This document shows, piece by piece, positions 29,596-63,200 of a stretch of DNA of 64,000 nucleotides. The stretch's first letter is position 1; each line of letters opens with the position of its first letter. Where the stretch lies: the NCBI GenBank assembly GCA_965117015.1, contig OZ220747.1, positions 457,812 to 521,811 of the forward strand, given 5' to 3'. Origin of the DNA: Acidimicrobiales bacterium (GTDB lineage Bacteria > Actinomycetota > Acidimicrobiia > Acidimicrobiales > Aldehydirespiratoraceae). The translations under genes and the position numbers were made by a program. The notes beneath the pieces were generated by a model. That model did not search any database. It saw nothing but the letters and a program-made list of their open reading frames with translations, and was not told the DNA's origin.

Positions 29596-29994
29596 CTAGG
29601 CGACCGCGACTCTCAAACGCAGCTCGGCCCGCTCCAACGCCGCGACCGCCTCAACGTCCTCGGCGTCGACTGCAAGCGCGTCCGCCGCCTGTTGCCGGGC
29701 GACCTCGGCCCGGGCGGTGTCGATCTCGCCGGCGGCCTCTGACACGTCCGAGAGGATGGTCACCTTGTTGTGGCTGACCTCGACGAAGCCCCGGTGCACG
29801 GCGAAGGTGTCGCGCTCGCCGCCGGGCCGCAGCACGTCGACCGACCAGGGGGCCAGCACGCCCAGGAAGGGCACGTGCCCGGCCTGGAAGGCGATGTCGC
29901 CCTCCTCCACCGTGCGCACGATCACCATCTCGGCCGAGCCCGAGTAGGTCACCTCCTCGGGCGAGACCAGCTCGACGTCGAGCTCTACAGCCAT
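29596..29994 (-). CDS. atpC: F1 ATP synthase subunit epsilon
   Basis: 132 aa. Position after atpD. VELVSPE..AFQAGHVPFLGVL pattern. Confidence 0.9.
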   Translation of the reverse strand: MAVELDVELVSPEEVTYSGSAEMVIVRTVEEGDIAFQAGHVPFLGVLAPWSVDVLRPGGERDTFAVHRGFVEVSHNKVTILSDVSEAAGEIDTARAEVARQQAADALAVDAEDVEAVAALERAELRLRVAVA

Positions 29995-30012
29995 GCTCGG
30001 CCCCCGCGCATG

Positions 30013-32485
<2,473 letters not shown>

Positions 32486-44789: not shown

Positions 44790-46399
44790 CTAGAGCCTCT
44801 CCGGGGCCGACACCCCGAGGATGCCCAGGGCCACGGCCAGGCCCACCCGGGCTCCCTCCACCAGCCACAGACGGGCCTGGCGCAGCTCCTCGCCCACGTC
44901 GTCGCGCAGGATGGGGCAATCGTGCCAGAACCGGTGGAAGGCGGCCGCCAGCTCGCGGGCCCAGCCAGTCACCTGGTGCGGGGCGCGGGCTCGGGTCGCG
45001 GCCAGCACCGTGTCGGGCAGGGACGCCAGGGCCCTCAGCACGTCCAGCTCACGCTCGTGCACGAGTACCGACAGATCACATCGTCGAGCGGTGCCCGTTG
45101 AACGTCGCGGGCCGCGGCCATCCGCCCCAACGAGTGGATGCGGGCGTGCGCGTACTGCACGTAGTAGACGGGGTTCTCGGCTGATTGGGCCGACACCACG
45201 TCGACGTCGATGGTCTGGGTGGTGTCGATGGACTGGAGCAGGTACACCAGCCGGGTCACGTCGGGCCCCACCTCGTCGAGCAGGTCCGCGACCAGCACCA
45301 TGTCGCCGGCCCGCTTGGACAGGCGTACCTCGGCCCCGCCCCGCCGCAGGGTGACGTTCTGGCCGATCAGTGTCTCGTAGGCGTCCGCCGGGTGGCCCAA
45401 CGCGCCCAGCGCGGCACGCATCCGGGGGACGTAGCCGTGGTGGTCGGCTCCAAGGATGTCGATGACCAGGTCGCCCCGAGAGAACTTCTCGTGGTGGTAG
45501 GCGATGTCGGGCAGGAAGTAGGTGGGCTCGCCGTCGCTCTTGACCAGCACCCGGTCGGCGCTGTCGCCGAACTCGCCGGTGCGGAGCCATACCGCGCCGT
45601 CCCGGGTGTAGACCATGGCCCGGCTGCGCAGCTCGTCGAGGACGCTGTCCATCGCGCCCCGGGCGACCAGCGCCGACTCGCTGGTGTACAGGTCGAAGTC
45701 GACGTTCATCGCGGCCATGGTCTCGACCTGGTCCCGGTGGGCGCGCTCCAGCCCCCACTGGCGCACCTCCGCGGCATCGGACATCTCGGCGGCCCATTCG
45801 GCCACGTACTCGCCGTGGTAACCGTCGTCGGCCGGCTCGGCGCCGCGGCTTCGAGCCTCGAGGGAGGCGGTGAACAGGTCGATCTGGCGGCCCCGATCAT
45901 TCACGTAGAACTCCCGGCACACCGCGTAGCCGCAGCGTTCCAGCAGCCGGCACAGCGAGTCTCCGTAGGCGGCCCAGCGTCCGTGGCCGGCATGCAGCGG
46001 TCCGGTGGGATTGGCCGACACGAACTCCACGCTCACCGAGCGTCCCGCCCCTGCGGTGCTGCGGGCGTAGCCGTCGACGCCGGCTTCGATCACCGCTCCG
46101 AGCACTTCGTGCAGCCAGCTCGGGGCCAGCCTGAAGTTCACGAAGCCGGGGCCGGCGGCCTCCACCGTCACCACGTGCGGGGGTGGCTCGGCGTTCAGCC
46201 GGGCGACGATCTGCTCGGCCAGCTCTCGGGGTGGACGCCCCGCGGCCTTGGCCGCGGCCAGGGCGACATTGGACGACCACTCACCGTGGGAGCGGTCCCG
46301 GGGACGCTCGATGGCGATCTCGGCGGGCGCGCCGTCGACGCCGGCTCCTTCGAGAGCCGAGCGCAGCCCGTCCCGCAAGCCGTCGCGCACATCCGGCAT
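44790..46399 (-). pseudogene. argS: arginine--tRNA ligase interrupted by an apparent 1-nt deletion near 45077
   Basis: The 45035-46399 frame encodes the N-terminal and catalytic parts (SANPTGPLHAGHGR) and then stops. The DALR anticodon-binding end (HERELDVLRAL...GILGVSAPERL) continues in the 44790-45797 frame. The junction reads GAT GTG ATC TGT where GAT GTG GAT CTG would restore one ORF. Confidence 0.85.
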
Positions 46400-46539: not shown

Positions 46540-47721
46540 ATGACCGTCACCGACGCCGCCCCTGCGCCGGCCAAGAAGCCCCGCTGGACCTACCAGTGGA
46601 AGGAACTCCACGACGAGGTCATCACCTCGGGGCTATGCACCGGCTGCGCGGGGTGCGTGATCGCCTGCCCCCACCACGTGATCGGCTACACCCACGAGCC
46701 CGGCGCCTACAAGCCGTTCCACCTCGAGGACGACGAGTACGGTCCTGGGGACTGCGTCCACGGGGTGAAGGGCTGCACCTCGTGCACGAGGGCCTGCCCC
46801 CGGTTCCGCATGTGGGAGCCCGAGGCCGACATGCACCTGTTCGGCCGGGAACGGGATCCTGACGAGATGTCGGGCATCTACTCCGACATCCTGCTGACCC
46901 GGGCCAGCGACGACTTCGTGTACGAGGTGGGCCAGGACGGCGGGCTGGTGTCGGCCATCCTGATCTGGTGCATGGAGAACGACATCATCGACGGGGCCCT
47001 CACCAGCGGGGTGGAGTCGCTGGCCAACGGGGAGCCGGGCTGGAAGGCGTTCCCGATGGTGGCCACCAACCGCGACGAGGTGCTGCGGGGCGCGGGCAGC
47101 CGCTACACCTACTCGGCCAACCCCATCGCCTTCGAGGAGGCCCGCGAGAAGGGCCTGGACCGCCTAGCGCTGGTGGGCATGAGCTGCCAGACGTCGGTGG
47201 GGCCGGTGATGTGGCACCGCAAAGTGGGCAAGGTCAGCAAGCCGATCAAGCTCAACATCGGCCTGCTGTGCTCGAAGTCCTTCGACGACTCGCTGTTCGA
47301 CGAGCTCTTCGAGGTGAAGTACGGGCTGCCCAAGGAGCGGATCTCGAAGATGAACATCAAGGGCGTCTTCCAGATCTGGACCAAGGACGGCGGCTACCAC
47401 GAGATCAACCTCAAGGAGTGCCACGCCTGGACCCGGGAGGGCTGCAACCTGTGCCCGGACTTCGCGGCCGAGCACGCCGACATCTCCACCGGCGGCATCG
47501 GAGACCTGACCGACTGGACCCTCACCATCGTGCGCACCGAGCTGGGCCGGGCCGTGATCGACGCCATGGTGCGCGACGGGGCGATCGAGACCCGTCCGGG
47601 CGACGACGACCCGGGCGCCATCGCGCTGATGCACCGCCTGTCGGCCAAGAGCCGGGAGCGCTGGCCCCACTGGGCCGACGGCGCGGCCCGCCTAGGCCTG
47701 CCCGAACGCAAGACGGCCTGA
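46540..47721 (+). CDS. coenzyme F420 hydrogenase/dehydrogenase beta-subunit (FrhB/FdhB/FpoF) family protein
   Basis: ATG 46540 inside the track ORF. SGLCTGCAGCVIACP and GCTSCTRACP Fe-S motifs, FrhB-like body (GGLVSAIL..., LVGMSCQ, CNLCPDF). Confidence 0.8.
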   Translation: MTVTDAAPAPAKKPRWTYQWKELHDEVITSGLCTGCAGCVIACPHHVIGYTHEPGAYKPFHLEDDEYGPGDCVHGVKGCTSCTRACPRFRMWEPEADMHLFGRERDPDEMSGIYSDILLTRASDDFVYEVGQDGGLVSAILIWCMENDIIDGALTSGVESLANGEPGWKAFPMVATNRDEVLRGAGSRYTYSANPIAFEEAREKGLDRLALVGMSCQTSVGPVMWHRKVGKVSKPIKLNIGLLCSKSFDDSLFDELFEVKYGLPKERISKMNIKGVFQIWTKDGGYHEINLKECHAWTREGCNLCPDFAAEHADISTGGIGDLTDWTLTIVRTELGRAVIDAMVRDGAIETRPGDDDPGAIALMHRLSAKSRERWPHWADGAARLGLPERKTA

Positions 47722-47753
47722 TACACAGACCTCCCAACCCCGAGGAGCCTGAC

Positions 47754-48368
47754 ATGGACATCGAGTTCTGGATCGACCCGCTTTGACCGTGGTGCTGGGT
47801 GACGGCCCGTTGGGTCGTCGACGAGGTGCAGCCGGCCAAGGATCTGAACATCACCTGGCAGCCGATCAGCCTGTTCTTCAAGAACGATCCCGACCCCGAC
47901 TCGGAGTACTACACGCACTCGTACTTCAGCTTGCGGCTGATGAGGGTGCTGGAGTCGGTGCGTGAAGCCGACGGCGACGACGCGGTGGGGCCCCTGTACT
48001 GGGAGTACGGCCGGCGCCTGCACCACGACGGTGTGCGCGAGTTCCCGGTGGCCGACGCGCTGGAGGCGGTCGGCTACGACACCTCCCACGGGGCCGCCTT
48101 CGATGACGATTCGTGGGATCCCGAGATCCGCAAGCGCATGGACGAGGGCCTGGCCCTGTGCGGCGACCAGGTCGGCACCCCGATGATCGCATTGAAGGAC
48201 CGCAACGGCGACAAGCAGGGCTACTTCGGCCCGGTAATCACCCGGGTGCCGCCCCCCGAGGACTCCCTGGCCATGTGGGACGCCCTGGTGGCCATGATGA
48301 ACGTGTCCGGCTTCTGGGAACTCAAACGCACCAGAACCGAACGCCCCGAATTCGGCCCCCGCCCCTAG
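47754..48368 (+). CDS. DsbA-family, Rv2466c-like thiol reductase with an in-frame TGA (47784-47786) at the first Cys of the CPWC motif: candidate selenoprotein, or disrupted gene
   Basis: GAGGAG (47742-47) then ATG 47754: MDIEFWIDPL-TGA-PWCWVTARWVVDEV... in frame with track ORF 47799-48368. C-terminus ...FWELKRTRTERPEFGPRP resembles Rv2466c (recalled). Confidence 0.7.
47801..47819 (+). promoter_or_regulatory. SECIS-like hairpin 14 nt downstream of the in-frame TGA
   Basis: GACGGCCC-GTT-GGGTCGTC: 8 bp including one G-U pair. The apical loop begins with GU. Confidence 0.3.
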
Positions 48369-48411: not shown

Positions 48412-49530
48412 CTATGGGCCGCAGAAGTGTGACCATACGGCCTCGGACCTGGCCGGGCCGATGCCTCTTACTGCTTCAAGCTCTGCGCGGCTGGAGAAGG
48501 GCTGGGCCGCGGCCAGCCGGGCGGAGAGCACCTCGCCGATGCCGGATACCGCGTCGTACTGGGCCTCGGTCTTGTTGGCAATCACGCACCGCTCCGCGAC
48601 GGCGGTAGTGGTGGTCGGCGACACCGTCGTGGTCGGCGACACCGTCGTGGTCGGCGACACCGTCGTGGTCGAAGTGTCCTGAGGCGCGGTCGAGACTTCG
48701 GGCGCCTGATCGCCACACCTGGCAAGCGTCGCACTGAGGGCATCCGCCTCGGCCCGGTCGACAGCAAGGCCCCACTCCGACTTGACCGCAACCGTGGTCA
48801 CCGCCAGGAAGCAGCGTCCCGCTGCAGTGACCGTGTACCCGCCGCCGCACGCCGACGACCGGGCGATGTCAGCGTCGGACCACTCGAAGATGTCGTCGGC
48901 ACCCTTGGACTGGTTCACGCAAGCCCGCGACGCCACGTGGTTGTCGGGGTCCTGACTGAACTGCCGCTTTGCGCTTGCGGGCCAGTCCCAGCCGCCCGAC
49001 TCATGGGCCTCGTGGAGCGCCACCACGTGGTCGACGTTGCAAGTGTCGATGGGAGTGCCGGTGTAGGGATCGGGAGAACCCACCGCTCCGCCGCACAATC
49101 CGCTGTTGTGCGGCCCCCAGTCATCACGGTCATAGCCCGAGCCGTACTCGGCCGCCACCGGCAGCACCACGTCGGGCACCGACACCTCAGGCACAGACAC
49201 CTCGGGAACCGCGGCCTCAGGCACAGACGTCGACGGAACCACTGCCTCAAGCACAGACGTTGTCGGCACAGACACCTCAGGCGCCGCGGCCTCAGGCACA
49301 GACGTCGACGGAACCACTGCCTCAAGCACAGACGTTGTCGGCACAGACACCTCAGTCGTCTCTGCCTCAGGCACAGACGTCGACGGAACCACTGCCTCAG
49401 GCGCCGACGTTGTCGACAGAGGGTCTGCGGCTGGTTGGGCGACTTCGGGAGAACCGCACGCCGCGGCGCCCGCCAATACAAGCACGGCTGCGAACCGGAC
49501 CGGCCGGCCAAACCGGCAACCAGCGATCAC
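48412..49530 (-). CDS. secreted lipoprotein: DUF1524/HNH-like nuclease domain plus C-terminal ComEA-type helix-hairpin-helix, with repeat-rich linkers
   Basis: GTG 49530 overlaps the stop of the upstream gene (GTGA). Lipobox LVLAGAAAC. YDRDDWG...DPYTGTPI...VDHVVALHEAHESGGWDW...VNQSKG. C-terminal VSGIGEVLSARL...LEAVRGIGPARSEAV. The rest of the 560-aa track ORF is an out-of-frame overlap. Confidence 0.75.
   Translation of the reverse strand: MIAGCRFGRPVRFAAVLVLAGAAACGSPEVAQPAADPLSTTSAPEAVVPSTSVPEAETTEVSVPTTSVLEAVVPSTSVPEAAAPEVSVPTTSVLEAVVPSTSVPEAAVPEVSVPEVSVPDVVLPVAAEYGSGYDRDDWGPHNSGLCGGAVGSPDPYTGTPIDTCNVDHVVALHEAHESGGWDWPASAKRQFSQDPDNHVASRACVNQSKGADDIFEWSDADIARSSACGGGYTVTAAGRCFLAVTTVAVKSEWGLAVDRAEADALSATLARCGDQAPEVSTAPQDTSTTTVSPTTTVSPTTTVSPTTTTAVAERCVIANKTEAQYDAVSGIGEVLSARLAAAQPFSSRAELEAVRGIGPARSEAVWSHFCGP
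48613..48666 (-). repeat. 18-bp in-frame tandem repeat x3 (TTVSPT)
   Basis: GGTCGGCGACACCGTCGT repeated three times, read directly. Confidence 0.85.
49215..49410 (-). repeat. 75-bp in-frame tandem repeat (about 2.6 copies), encoding the V/P/S/T/E-rich linker
   Basis: Units at 49215-49289 and 49290-49364 are near-identical, plus a partial third copy. Confidence 0.85.
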
Positions 49531-61349: not shown

Positions 61350-62948
61350 CTAGCCGACCGGTGATGGGACCGAACGGCGGGGGACGGTCACCTCGATCAC
61401 GGTGCCGCGGGGCGCGTCGGCTGAAACGGCTTTGATGGTGATCGAGCCGCCGAGGTCGTGAACCACGAAGGTGCGCACGATTGTGAGGCCGAGCCCGGCG
61501 TCGCGGTCCAGGGAGAAGCCCTCTCCAACGCCGGGACCGTCGTCGGTGACGCGCATGGTCAGCGTGCTGGCGGTGCGGGCCAGGCGCACCTCGACCAGCT
61601 CCCCCGCGCCCGCGGGAGGTGCGGCGTGCTGGAAGGCGTTCTGCACCAGCTCCACCAGCACCACCGCCAGCGGCATCGCCGTCTCGCCGTCGATCTCGCC
61701 CACAACCCCCTCCACCCGGATCTTGAGGGGCCGCTCCACCGGGGCGAGTCCATCCTCCACCAGGCGCACGAGCGGACCCACGATCTCATCGAAGTCGAGC
61801 TCGGAGGTGGTGTCGAGAGCCAGATGCTCATGCACCATGGCGATCGACGAGACCCGCCGCACAGAGGACTCGACGGCTGTCTTCGCCTCCGCGCTGCCGA
61901 GGCGGCGAGCCTGGAGCTGCAGCAGCGAACTCACCGTCTGCAGGTTGTTCTTGACCCGGTGGTGGATCTCGCGGATGGTCGCATCCTTGGACAGGAGCAG
62001 GCGGTCGTGATGACGCAACTCGGACACATCTCGGAGCATCGCCACCGCCCCGGAGATCCGGTCCTCGGCCACCATGGGGTAGGCCCGCAGCACGACCACG
62101 ATCATCGATCCGGCAGTGAACTCGGCCACGGTGGAACGCCGGCGCCAGAACGAGCGGCGTATCACCGTGTCGTCCAGTCCGAGGTCACCGAGACGGCTGC
62201 CCGGCACCGAGCGCGTCACGCCCAAGCGGTGCAGGGCGCTGCGGGCGTTGGGCGAGGCGTAGCTGATCCGGCCCTCCCGGTCCAGCACCAGCACTCCATC
62301 GCCGACACGGGGCTCGCGGAACTCGCCGACCCGCTCCATGCGCTCGTAGGGGAAGGCGCCCTCGGCGATCATCCGCGCGAAGCGGGTGTACAGACCGCGG
62401 TAGATGGTCTCCAGCGGGTTCTCGTGGCGGATGGGGGCCGGTGCCGCCTCGTGCGAGAGCACCGCCACCGGCGCATCGTCGCAACGTACGGGCACATAGT
62501 CCACGACGCGGCGGCGGTCGCGTAGCGGCAGGCTGTCGACCTCCTCCACAACCGTGTCATCGCCCACGACAGGCAAGGATCCGGCCTCTGCCACCTCCGC
62601 CTCGCCCGCCTCGCCGGTGTCCATCGCGGCATGCAGCCAGGCCAGGGCGGGCCCCTGAACGATGGTGCCCACGGGGTCGACCACATGAACGGTGGGCCCG
62701 GTGTTGGCCCGGGCGTGGGCCAGCACCACGAAGTCACCGTCGGCGCTGACGGTCTCGTTGGCGCCCAGATCTGAGGCGCCCGCCATCGTCGCCGGATCGA
62801 ATCCGGCGACGCAGGGGGCGTACAGCAGCAGATCCCCGAAGGAGAGGTCGGCCAGCGGCGCCCACGAGGCCACCAGCCGGTGCAGATGATCGATGGAGCG
62901 CTCGTCGAGCGCGGTGCCGGCCCGGGCCAACTCCGCGAGACCGACCAC
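61350..62948 (-). CDS. pdtaS: PdtaS-like GAF-PAS sensor histidine kinase (HisKA_2)
   Basis: 532 aa. REIHHRVKNNLQTVSSLLQLQARR H-box, C-terminal HATPase (DDGPGV, GLGLTIV). Confidence 0.8.
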   Translation of the reverse strand: MVGLAELARAGTALDERSIDHLHRLVASWAPLADLSFGDLLLYAPCVAGFDPATMAGASDLGANETVSADGDFVVLAHARANTGPTVHVVDPVGTIVQGPALAWLHAAMDTGEAGEAEVAEAGSLPVVGDDTVVEEVDSLPLRDRRRVVDYVPVRCDDAPVAVLSHEAAPAPIRHENPLETIYRGLYTRFARMIAEGAFPYERMERVGEFREPRVGDGVLVLDREGRISYASPNARSALHRLGVTRSVPGSRLGDLGLDDTVIRRSFWRRRSTVAEFTAGSMIVVVLRAYPMVAEDRISGAVAMLRDVSELRHHDRLLLSKDATIREIHHRVKNNLQTVSSLLQLQARRLGSAEAKTAVESSVRRVSSIAMVHEHLALDTTSELDFDEIVGPLVRLVEDGLAPVERPLKIRVEGVVGEIDGETAMPLAVVLVELVQNAFQHAAPPAGAGELVEVRLARTASTLTMRVTDDGPGVGEGFSLDRDAGLGLTIVRTFVVHDLGGSITIKAVSADAPRGTVIEVTVPRRSVPSPVG

Positions 62949-62972
62949 CGCCGCGGTCCTCCTCTCGGCCTC

Positions 62973-63200
62973 TCAGCCGAAGCCAATGGGGTGGGAGCCG
63001 GGCGGACCCATCTCGACATGGGTGACACGCGACGCGGAAACCGCAATCTCCCGGCCCTTGTCGTCGGTCAGCCACAGCACCGGGACCTCGCCCTTCAGCG
63101 CTGCCTCGACAGACGCCTTGATGTCCTCGCGGTCGGTGTCGTCGGGGAGGTTCACGGTGATGGGTTGGGGGTTGTCGGCGATGCCGATGCGAAGCTCCAC
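62973..63200 (-). CDS. DUF3107 family protein
   Basis: GTG 63200 is preceded by AAGGAGAGCAGA. VELRIGIADNPQPITVNLP...LWLTDDKGREIAVSASRVTHVEMG...IGFG. Confidence 0.75.
   Translation of the reverse strand: MELRIGIADNPQPITVNLPDDTDREDIKASVEAALKGEVPVLWLTDDKGREIAVSASRVTHVEMGPPGSHPIGFG

Follow-up and report, generated by a model that had tools for sequence, protein, structure and literature searches.

A conserved in-frame TGA at the catalytic cysteine position of an Rv2466c-like reductase gene of Acidimicrobiales is very probably a selenocysteine codon

The closest known relatives of the gene described here are Rv2466c of Mycobacterium tuberculosis (mycoredoxin-2), a mycothiol-dependent reductase and nitroreductase of solved structure (4NXI, 4ZIL, 5XUR), and the proteins of the DsbA-Mrx1 cluster, which include NCgl2339 and NCgl2478 of C. 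glutamicum. The cluster has been defined by the active-site motif C-P-W/F-C, and in Rv2466c the nucleophile is Cys19 and the resolving cysteine is Cys22 (PMC8280269). The gene in question lies within a stretch of 64,000 nucleotides (nt) from an Acidimicrobiales bacterium (contig OZ220747.1), which is referred to here as the window, and it carries an in-frame TGA at positions 47784-47786, at the column of the nucleophilic cysteine. A comparison of this locus with its relatives indicates that the TGA is very probably a selenocysteine (Sec, U) codon, which would make the gene that of a selenoprotein, an Rv2466c-like reductase with a U-P-W-C centre.

Selenoproteins of a related kind are established. 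A “DsbA-like protein” with a UxxC motif was reported from nine sequences assigned to COG2761 in the Sargasso Sea study of 2005, has been found in Anaeromyxobacter, Desulfovibrio and Desulfotomaculum, and accounts for 45 sequences in 41 organisms in a survey of about 5,200 genomes; reviews of 2022 and 2026 list it as PF01323 with the motif UxxC, the 2026 review as “form 1” with NIP15863.1 as its representative. The window protein has in common with this family its membership of the DsbA superfamily, the UxxC motif, the predicted placement of Sec at the N-terminal redox position, the existence of homologues with cysteine, and an occurrence in marine metagenomes. It may be distinct from form 1: it belongs to PF22234, and the protein with cysteine in place of the residue encoded by the TGA scores 24.5 bits against PF01323 (DSBA), just below the cut-off of 25.6. 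The gene is an unannotated new member of the established UxxC DsbA-like kind of selenoprotein, and it involves no new mechanism or general concept. A search of the literature returned no paper that links Rv2466c to selenocysteine, and the 2026 review makes no mention of mycothiol or mycoredoxin.

An earlier sequence-only reading of the window, made without database searches, had proposed that the TGA encodes selenocysteine in a UPWC motif and is followed by a hairpin resembling a selenocysteine insertion sequence (SECIS). The positions which it gave for the GAGGAG, the ATG, the TGA, the GTG restart and the hairpin were all found to be correct when the sequence was read again, and the features are these:

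47742-47747, + strand: Shine-Dalgarno-like GAGGAG, 6 nt 5' of the true start codon, by direct reading of the sequence
47754-48368, + strand: coding sequence of the probable selenoprotein, an Rv2466c-like DsbA-fold thiol reductase with U11-P-W-C14, from its translation, Pfam PF22234 and the structures of Rv2466c in the PDB
47784-47786, + strand: in-frame TGA, codon 11, probably read as selenocysteine, at the column of the nucleophilic Cys19 of Rv2466c
47793-47795, + strand: TGC codon of the resolving Cys14 of UPWC, an invariant cysteine that lies 5' of the annotated GTG start
47799-47801, + strand: GTG that gene callers take as the start, giving a truncated product of 189 residues, and which is really the codon of Val16
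47801-47819, + strand: putative SECIS hairpin, with 5' arm 47801-47808 GACGGCCC, loop 47809-47811 GUU and 3' arm 47812-47819 GGGUCGUC

The coding sequence starts with ATG at 47754-47756 and consists of 204 codons followed by a TAG stop (48366-48368). The frame is translated from this ATG as MDIEFWIDPL-(TGA)-PWCWVTARWVVDEV...FWELKRTRTERPEFGPRP, which is to say that ten sense codons are followed by the TGA and then by PWCWVTARWVV and the remainder of the protein. The mechanical listing of open reading frames (ORFs) contains a frame of 189 residues that begins at GTG 47799.

The assignment of the protein to its family is straightforward. The 204-residue protein with cysteine substituted at the TGA scores 120.9 bits (E = 9e-35) against the Pfam profile PF22234 (Rv2466c-like), for which the curated cut-off is 27, and it aligns over its full length with a solved structure, the PDB chains 4ZIL, 4NXI and 5XUR of Rv2466c being matched at E of about 3e-35 with residues 4-201 set against 12-207. 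In this alignment the TGA column is that of the first cysteine of DPLCPWCW in Rv2466c, and the C-P-W/F-C motif is present as U-P-W-C, so that the resemblance to Rv2466c which the sequence-only reading had put forward is borne out. The two proteins have in common PF22234, full-length homology, the position of the x-P-W-C motif, a conserved VGTP loop and a C-terminal ELKRTRTE motif. The window gene differs from that of Rv2466c in having a UGA, the presumed Sec codon, for the nucleophilic Cys19, in having a predicted SECIS inside the coding sequence, and in its host, which belongs to the Acidimicrobiia and not to the Mycobacteriales; mycothiol dependence is a feature of Rv2466c.

The distribution of codons at the TGA column was determined in a collection containing one genome per species, in which 74 loci were found, 72 of them containing the motif. 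All but three of the 74 record titles are those of metagenome-assembled genomes of Acidimicrobiia or Acidimicrobiales, and many of the loci bear the label Candidatus Aldehydirespirator or derive from bins of sponge metagenomes. The comparison of orthologues at this column, which the sequence-only reading had proposed, gives TGA in 62 of the 72 genome loci and in 17 of 28 metagenome contigs from JGI/ENA, and a cysteine codon, TGC or TGT, in the remaining 10 and 11. Among the roughly 100 loci compared, the UGA column therefore exchanges only with cysteine codons. The same TGA is present in L075, an independent contig 99.6% identical to the window, and the TGA forms as a whole comprise about 80 independently assembled sequences whose proteins are between about 57% and 98% identical to that of the window. 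Cysteine occupies the column in the syntenic orthologues P0011 (L076) and P0014 (L077), which have 74% and 72% identity respectively, as it does in Rv2466c. In a separate observation, a second copy of the selenoprotein gene was found at L065:3001-3690 (OZ220727.1), in the same genome as L021; the two copies agree fully over about 133 residues, the TGA among them, after which the L065 copy is frameshifted or diverged, and it is either a duplicated pseudogene or an assembly artefact.

If the TGA is decoded rather than read as a stop, the codons on both of its sides should behave as coding sequence, and this is what is found in the 62 distinct TGA-form sequences. The start codon is ATG in 57 of them and GTG in 3. 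Over the nine codons that lead from the start to the TGA the amino acids are kept in all but the last, while the third positions vary (Ile as ATC, ATT or ATA; Asp as GAC or GAT; Pro as CCG, CCC, CCT or CCA). Between the TGA and the annotated GTG, the residues P-W-C-W show no amino acid change at all, with proline written by four codons and Cys14 by TGC in 47 sequences and TGT in 15. Because this stretch varies only synonymously, the frame must be translated through the TGA, and the stretch is not the untranslated sequence that initiation at GTG 47799 demands. The gene is under strong purifying selection over its full length and has no other disruption. The comparison shows that translation covers the frame before as well as after the TGA. 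A reassignment of TGA was considered and rejected: no ordinary stop in the window is as common as TGA, which ends 33 of the 61 called genes, and the genetic code is therefore the standard one.

The hairpin that follows the TGA begins 14 nt after it, with its loop 22 nt after it, and has an energy of -13.7 to -14.3 kcal/mol. The published bacterial SECIS (bSECIS) model (PMC13188914) specifies an apical loop of 3-9 nt with a G in its first two positions (G[G/U]), an upper stem of 4-16 base pairs (bp), a distance of 16-37 nt from the UGA to the loop, and an energy of -7.5 kcal/mol or lower. With a loop of 3 nt that opens with G and then U, a stem of 8 bp, and the spacing and energy just given, the hairpin falls within the model on all four counts, and the earlier description of it as SECIS-compatible, with a GU loop at a spacing of about 22 nt, agrees with the published consensus. 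The likeness to that consensus (the bSECISearch model, of the E. coli fdhF type) extends to the intragenic location just 3' of the UGA, the small G-U loop, the 8-bp upper stem, the 22-nt spacing and the energy below -7.5 kcal/mol. The window hairpin differs from it in that its loop has the minimal length of 3 nt, in that the comparison supports no bulged nucleotide, and in that it is near-invariant across about 60 species and matches no Rfam model. RNAalifold recovered the same helix independently, with the addition of a U47800-G47820 pair. A longer lower stem (G47799-C47822 and U47800-A47821, with G47820 bulged) is seen when the single sequence is folded, and was ruled out since L062, L063 and L073, and the rows which have another wobble base in the Asp codon (47820-47822), do not preserve its pairing.

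The significance of such a hairpin cannot be judged from a single sequence, since at 69% G+C the fold is unremarkable (z = -2.0 for the 29-nt core and -0.87 for 60 nt); it is the cross-species comparison that places the hairpin above chance. In the 62 TGA forms the wobble entropy of codons +5 to +11 (GTG ACG GCC CGT TGG GTC GTC) is 0-0.46 bits, whereas the third-position entropy is 1.0-1.3 bits at fourfold-degenerate codons elsewhere in the TGA forms and 1.5-2.0 bits at the same Thr, Ala, Arg and Val codons in the Cys forms. The Arg codon that gives the loop its GU is CGT in 59 of the 62 TGA forms, as against a third-position entropy of 1.78 bits in the Cys forms. The amino acid sequence does not account for this difference, as the Cys forms L076, L077 and L078 encode the identical peptide WVTARWVVDEV and yet depart from the TGA forms precisely at these wobble bases. 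Stem positions are paired in 99.4% of cases in 44 distinct TGA forms and in 78% in 12 Cys forms, and the three pairs that depend on wobble bases are formed in 132 of 132 cases in the former and in 20 of 36 in the latter. The loop in the 44 TGA-form rows is GUU in 38 and GGU in 5, the last being the opened 5-nt loop AGGUG of L103, where a change of CGT to AGG opens the closing pair. Nearly all changes in the stem within the TGA forms are from G-C to G-U or the reverse, and the only double compensatory change, from G-C to U-A, is found in L095:10031-10078 and L096:10031-10078, from two separate marine metagenomes, where it consists of two synonymous substitutions, ACG to ACT and GTC to GTA. The comparison across species shows a nucleotide-level constraint on a SECIS-shaped hairpin that is present only where the TGA is present. 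The sequence-only reading had regarded Cys-bearing relatives without conservation of the hairpin as evidence against its proposal; the relatives with TGA keep the hairpin to the nucleotide and the Cys-bearing relatives with the same peptide do not, an outcome which favours selenocysteine. The conservation of the TGA, the conservation of the frame and the TGA-specific constraint on the hairpin together support the selenocysteine and SECIS interpretation as it was first proposed.

In a rough neighbour-joining tree, five or more positions among the TGA forms are occupied by Cys forms. Since the SECIS is nearly identical in all TGA forms and the Cys forms are nested among them, the pattern suggests that the Sec form is old, that it extends across a deep clade of Acidimicrobiales, and that it had a single origin followed by repeated reversion to cysteine.

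The alternatives to a Sec codon differ in whether the TGA is real, whether it terminates translation, and what is inserted if it does not. The sequence-only reading had itself named an error in base calling or a true nonsense mutation in a gene undergoing decay, and the window does contain noise of the kind that such an explanation requires: over 20.5 kb it shows 13 indels relative to L075, which cluster at 51.3-53.3 kb, and the frameshifted argS which that reading had noticed is real, the gene (44790-46399, - strand) being split into two frames by a 1-nt deletion near 45076 and intact at 536 residues in L075. The split looks like long-read assembly noise and not like gene decay. Indels make up most of the differences from the sister contig, and no difference falls on the TGA codon; an error or a decaying gene is excluded for practical purposes, its probability being negligible, by the recurrence of the same TGA in about 80 assemblies made independently, across many species and sequencing platforms, and by the purifying selection on the flanking coding sequence, which has no further disruption. 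A different possibility is that the ribosome stops at the TGA after a conserved leader peptide of 10 residues and re-initiates at GTG 47799 to make a protein of 189 residues without the CxxC motif. This is the gene model that the callers adopt, 67 of the best 120 protein clusters begin at that position, and a GTG or ATG is present at the codon in 61 of the 62 distinct TGA forms. It is nevertheless extremely improbable, because the P-W-C-W codons are invariant in amino acid and variable synonymously, as they would be only if translated in frame, because no ribosome-binding site precedes GTG 47799, and because the TGA-form orthologue L073 has CAG there and hence no start codon. The truncated product would moreover lack strand beta-1, as the sequence-only reading had noted along with the loss of the first active-site cysteine, and the alignment shows that it would be without both of the redox residues on which the activity of the fold depends.

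It could also be supposed that the UGA is read through without Sec machinery, by a near-cognate Trp or Cys tRNA or by a suppressor tRNA, and that the hairpin is a generic stimulator of read-through. The comparative evidence establishes read-through and a constrained hairpin rather than the identity of the inserted residue, and this counts in favour of the explanation, which is none the less very unlikely. The Sec reading is preferred over the insertion of another residue because the UGA sits at exactly the catalytic cysteine column and interconverts only with cysteine codons, which is the signature of selenocysteine, and the hairpin fits the SelB-type consensus down to the G-U at the start of its loop and its spacing. 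In addition, UxxC DsbA-like selenoproteins are established, and Sec machinery has been reported both in this class and in sponge symbionts. Most of the bins of Aplysina sponge symbionts analyzed by Slaby et al. (2017) contain SelA together with SelB, and their Table S4 gives two SelA and one SelB for bin76 (16S best match Acidimicrobium ferrooxidans) and neither SelA nor SelB for bin134, which is also Acidimicrobium-like; a preprint of 2026 reports selA/B/C/D in all 84 complete genomes of Actinomarina, of the class Acidimicrobiia.

Several results weigh on the other side and must be set against the selenocysteine interpretation. The peptide T-A-R-W-V-V by itself forces much of the complementarity of the stem, the Cys form L078 still folds the complete stem, and the covariation amounts to one compensatory event. 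Around the TGA, Rfam gave no SECIS family at E<=10, just three matches at chance level, and over the whole window at gathering thresholds it gave a tRNA-Arg alone. Neither selA, selB, selD nor a tRNA-Sec was found in the window or in 107 fetched loci, each covering a few kb around the gene, by tblastn with the SelA, SelB and SelD of E. coli and by ARAGORN for the tRNA. A scan for in-frame TGAs based on coding potential revealed no further selenoprotein gene, either in the window or in the loci. It produced three candidates, each of which was rejected: the atpD/atpC pair at 30015 (window 29596-31533, - strand) and a pair formed by a small protein and a sensor histidine kinase at 62973 (61350-63200, - strand) are adjacent genes in a common frame with one TGA between them, which is not internal to either, and the candidate in L089 has a translation that looks like adjacent genes in a shared frame. 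We regard it as an exceedingly remote prospect that the genomes with the TGA form lack the canonical selA/B/C/D machinery and that the hairpin drives a SelB-independent recoding of the UGA, for example as Cys or Trp, at the catalytic cysteine position.

Taking the TGA as a Sec codon, a scheme for the synthesis and action of the protein may be proposed in which the identity of the inserted residue as Sec, the binding of the hairpin by SelB, the substrate and the reductant are all presumed. We infer the decoding steps from the canonical bacterial pathway as summarised in PMC13188914. Translation would start at ATG 47754, and with the UGA at 47784, 14 nt before the stem, in the A site of the ribosome, a complex of SelB, GTP and Sec-tRNA(Sec) would bind the apical part of the hairpin, so that Sec would be inserted as residue 11 in place of termination. 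The product would be a cytoplasmic thiol-disulfide reductase of 204 residues, Rv2466c-like and of the DsbA-fold “mycoredoxin-2” type. If the enzyme acts as Rv2466c and NCgl2478 do, the selenolate of U11 may attack a mixed disulfide, such as that between a protein and a low-molecular-weight thiol, in a monothiol mode, or it may act with Cys14 in an alternative dithiol mode in which intramolecular disulfides are attacked; Cys14 would resolve the intermediate with the formation of an Se-S bond, and the enzyme would be re-reduced by a pathway consisting of a low-molecular-weight thiol and its reductase.

The neighbourhood of the gene contains one conserved feature immediately upstream:

46540-47721, + strand: FrhB/FdhB-like Fe-S/flavin protein, assigned through Pfam matches of the genes called in L075, L076 and L077

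In L075, L076 and L077, the closer relatives, this FrhB/FdhB-like gene is syntenic with the Sec and the Cys forms alike, which is not so in the more distant L078; the gene could encode a redox partner, or its position could reflect mere synteny. At about 53.3-54.9 kb of the window (L075:15566-17108) there is a conserved trio of His_Phos_1, DUF3090 and PI3_PI4_kinase-like genes. This trio tracks the mycothiol-using Actinobacteria, and would bear on the reductant of the enzyme. A short tandem repeat is indicated 3' of the gene at 49190-49415, where a blastn self-match extends over 151 nt at 93% identity with a shift of 75 nt. The contig of the Cys-form P0011 carries lysA-like and argS genes in several called pieces (L076:666-3803), and is another noisy long-read assembly.

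The gene has been systematically mis-annotated. All of the public NCBI records inspected are 189 residues long and are named “hypothetical protein” or “disulfide bond formation protein DsbA”, and the 67 clusters already mentioned, among the best 120 formed at 90% identity, begin at the false restart (xTARW); the product as annotated is thus without its redox residues, in place of the real one of 204 residues, and NCBIfam has no model for the protein by which the calls could be fixed. If the Sec reading is true, the gene would provide a natural Sec version of the Rv2466c/mycoredoxin-2 class, which is the activator of the antitubercular prodrugs TP053 and nitrofuranylcalanolides, and the Sec and Cys forms would constitute a ready-made pair for the study of how selenium alters chemistry of the Rv2466c type. 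The five or more nested Cys forms make a clean case of Sec-to-Cys turnover, in which the SECIS decays after the UGA is lost. It would also follow that a sponge-associated family of Acidimicrobiia (Aldehydirespiratoraceae/UBA11606 and relatives) decodes selenocysteine.

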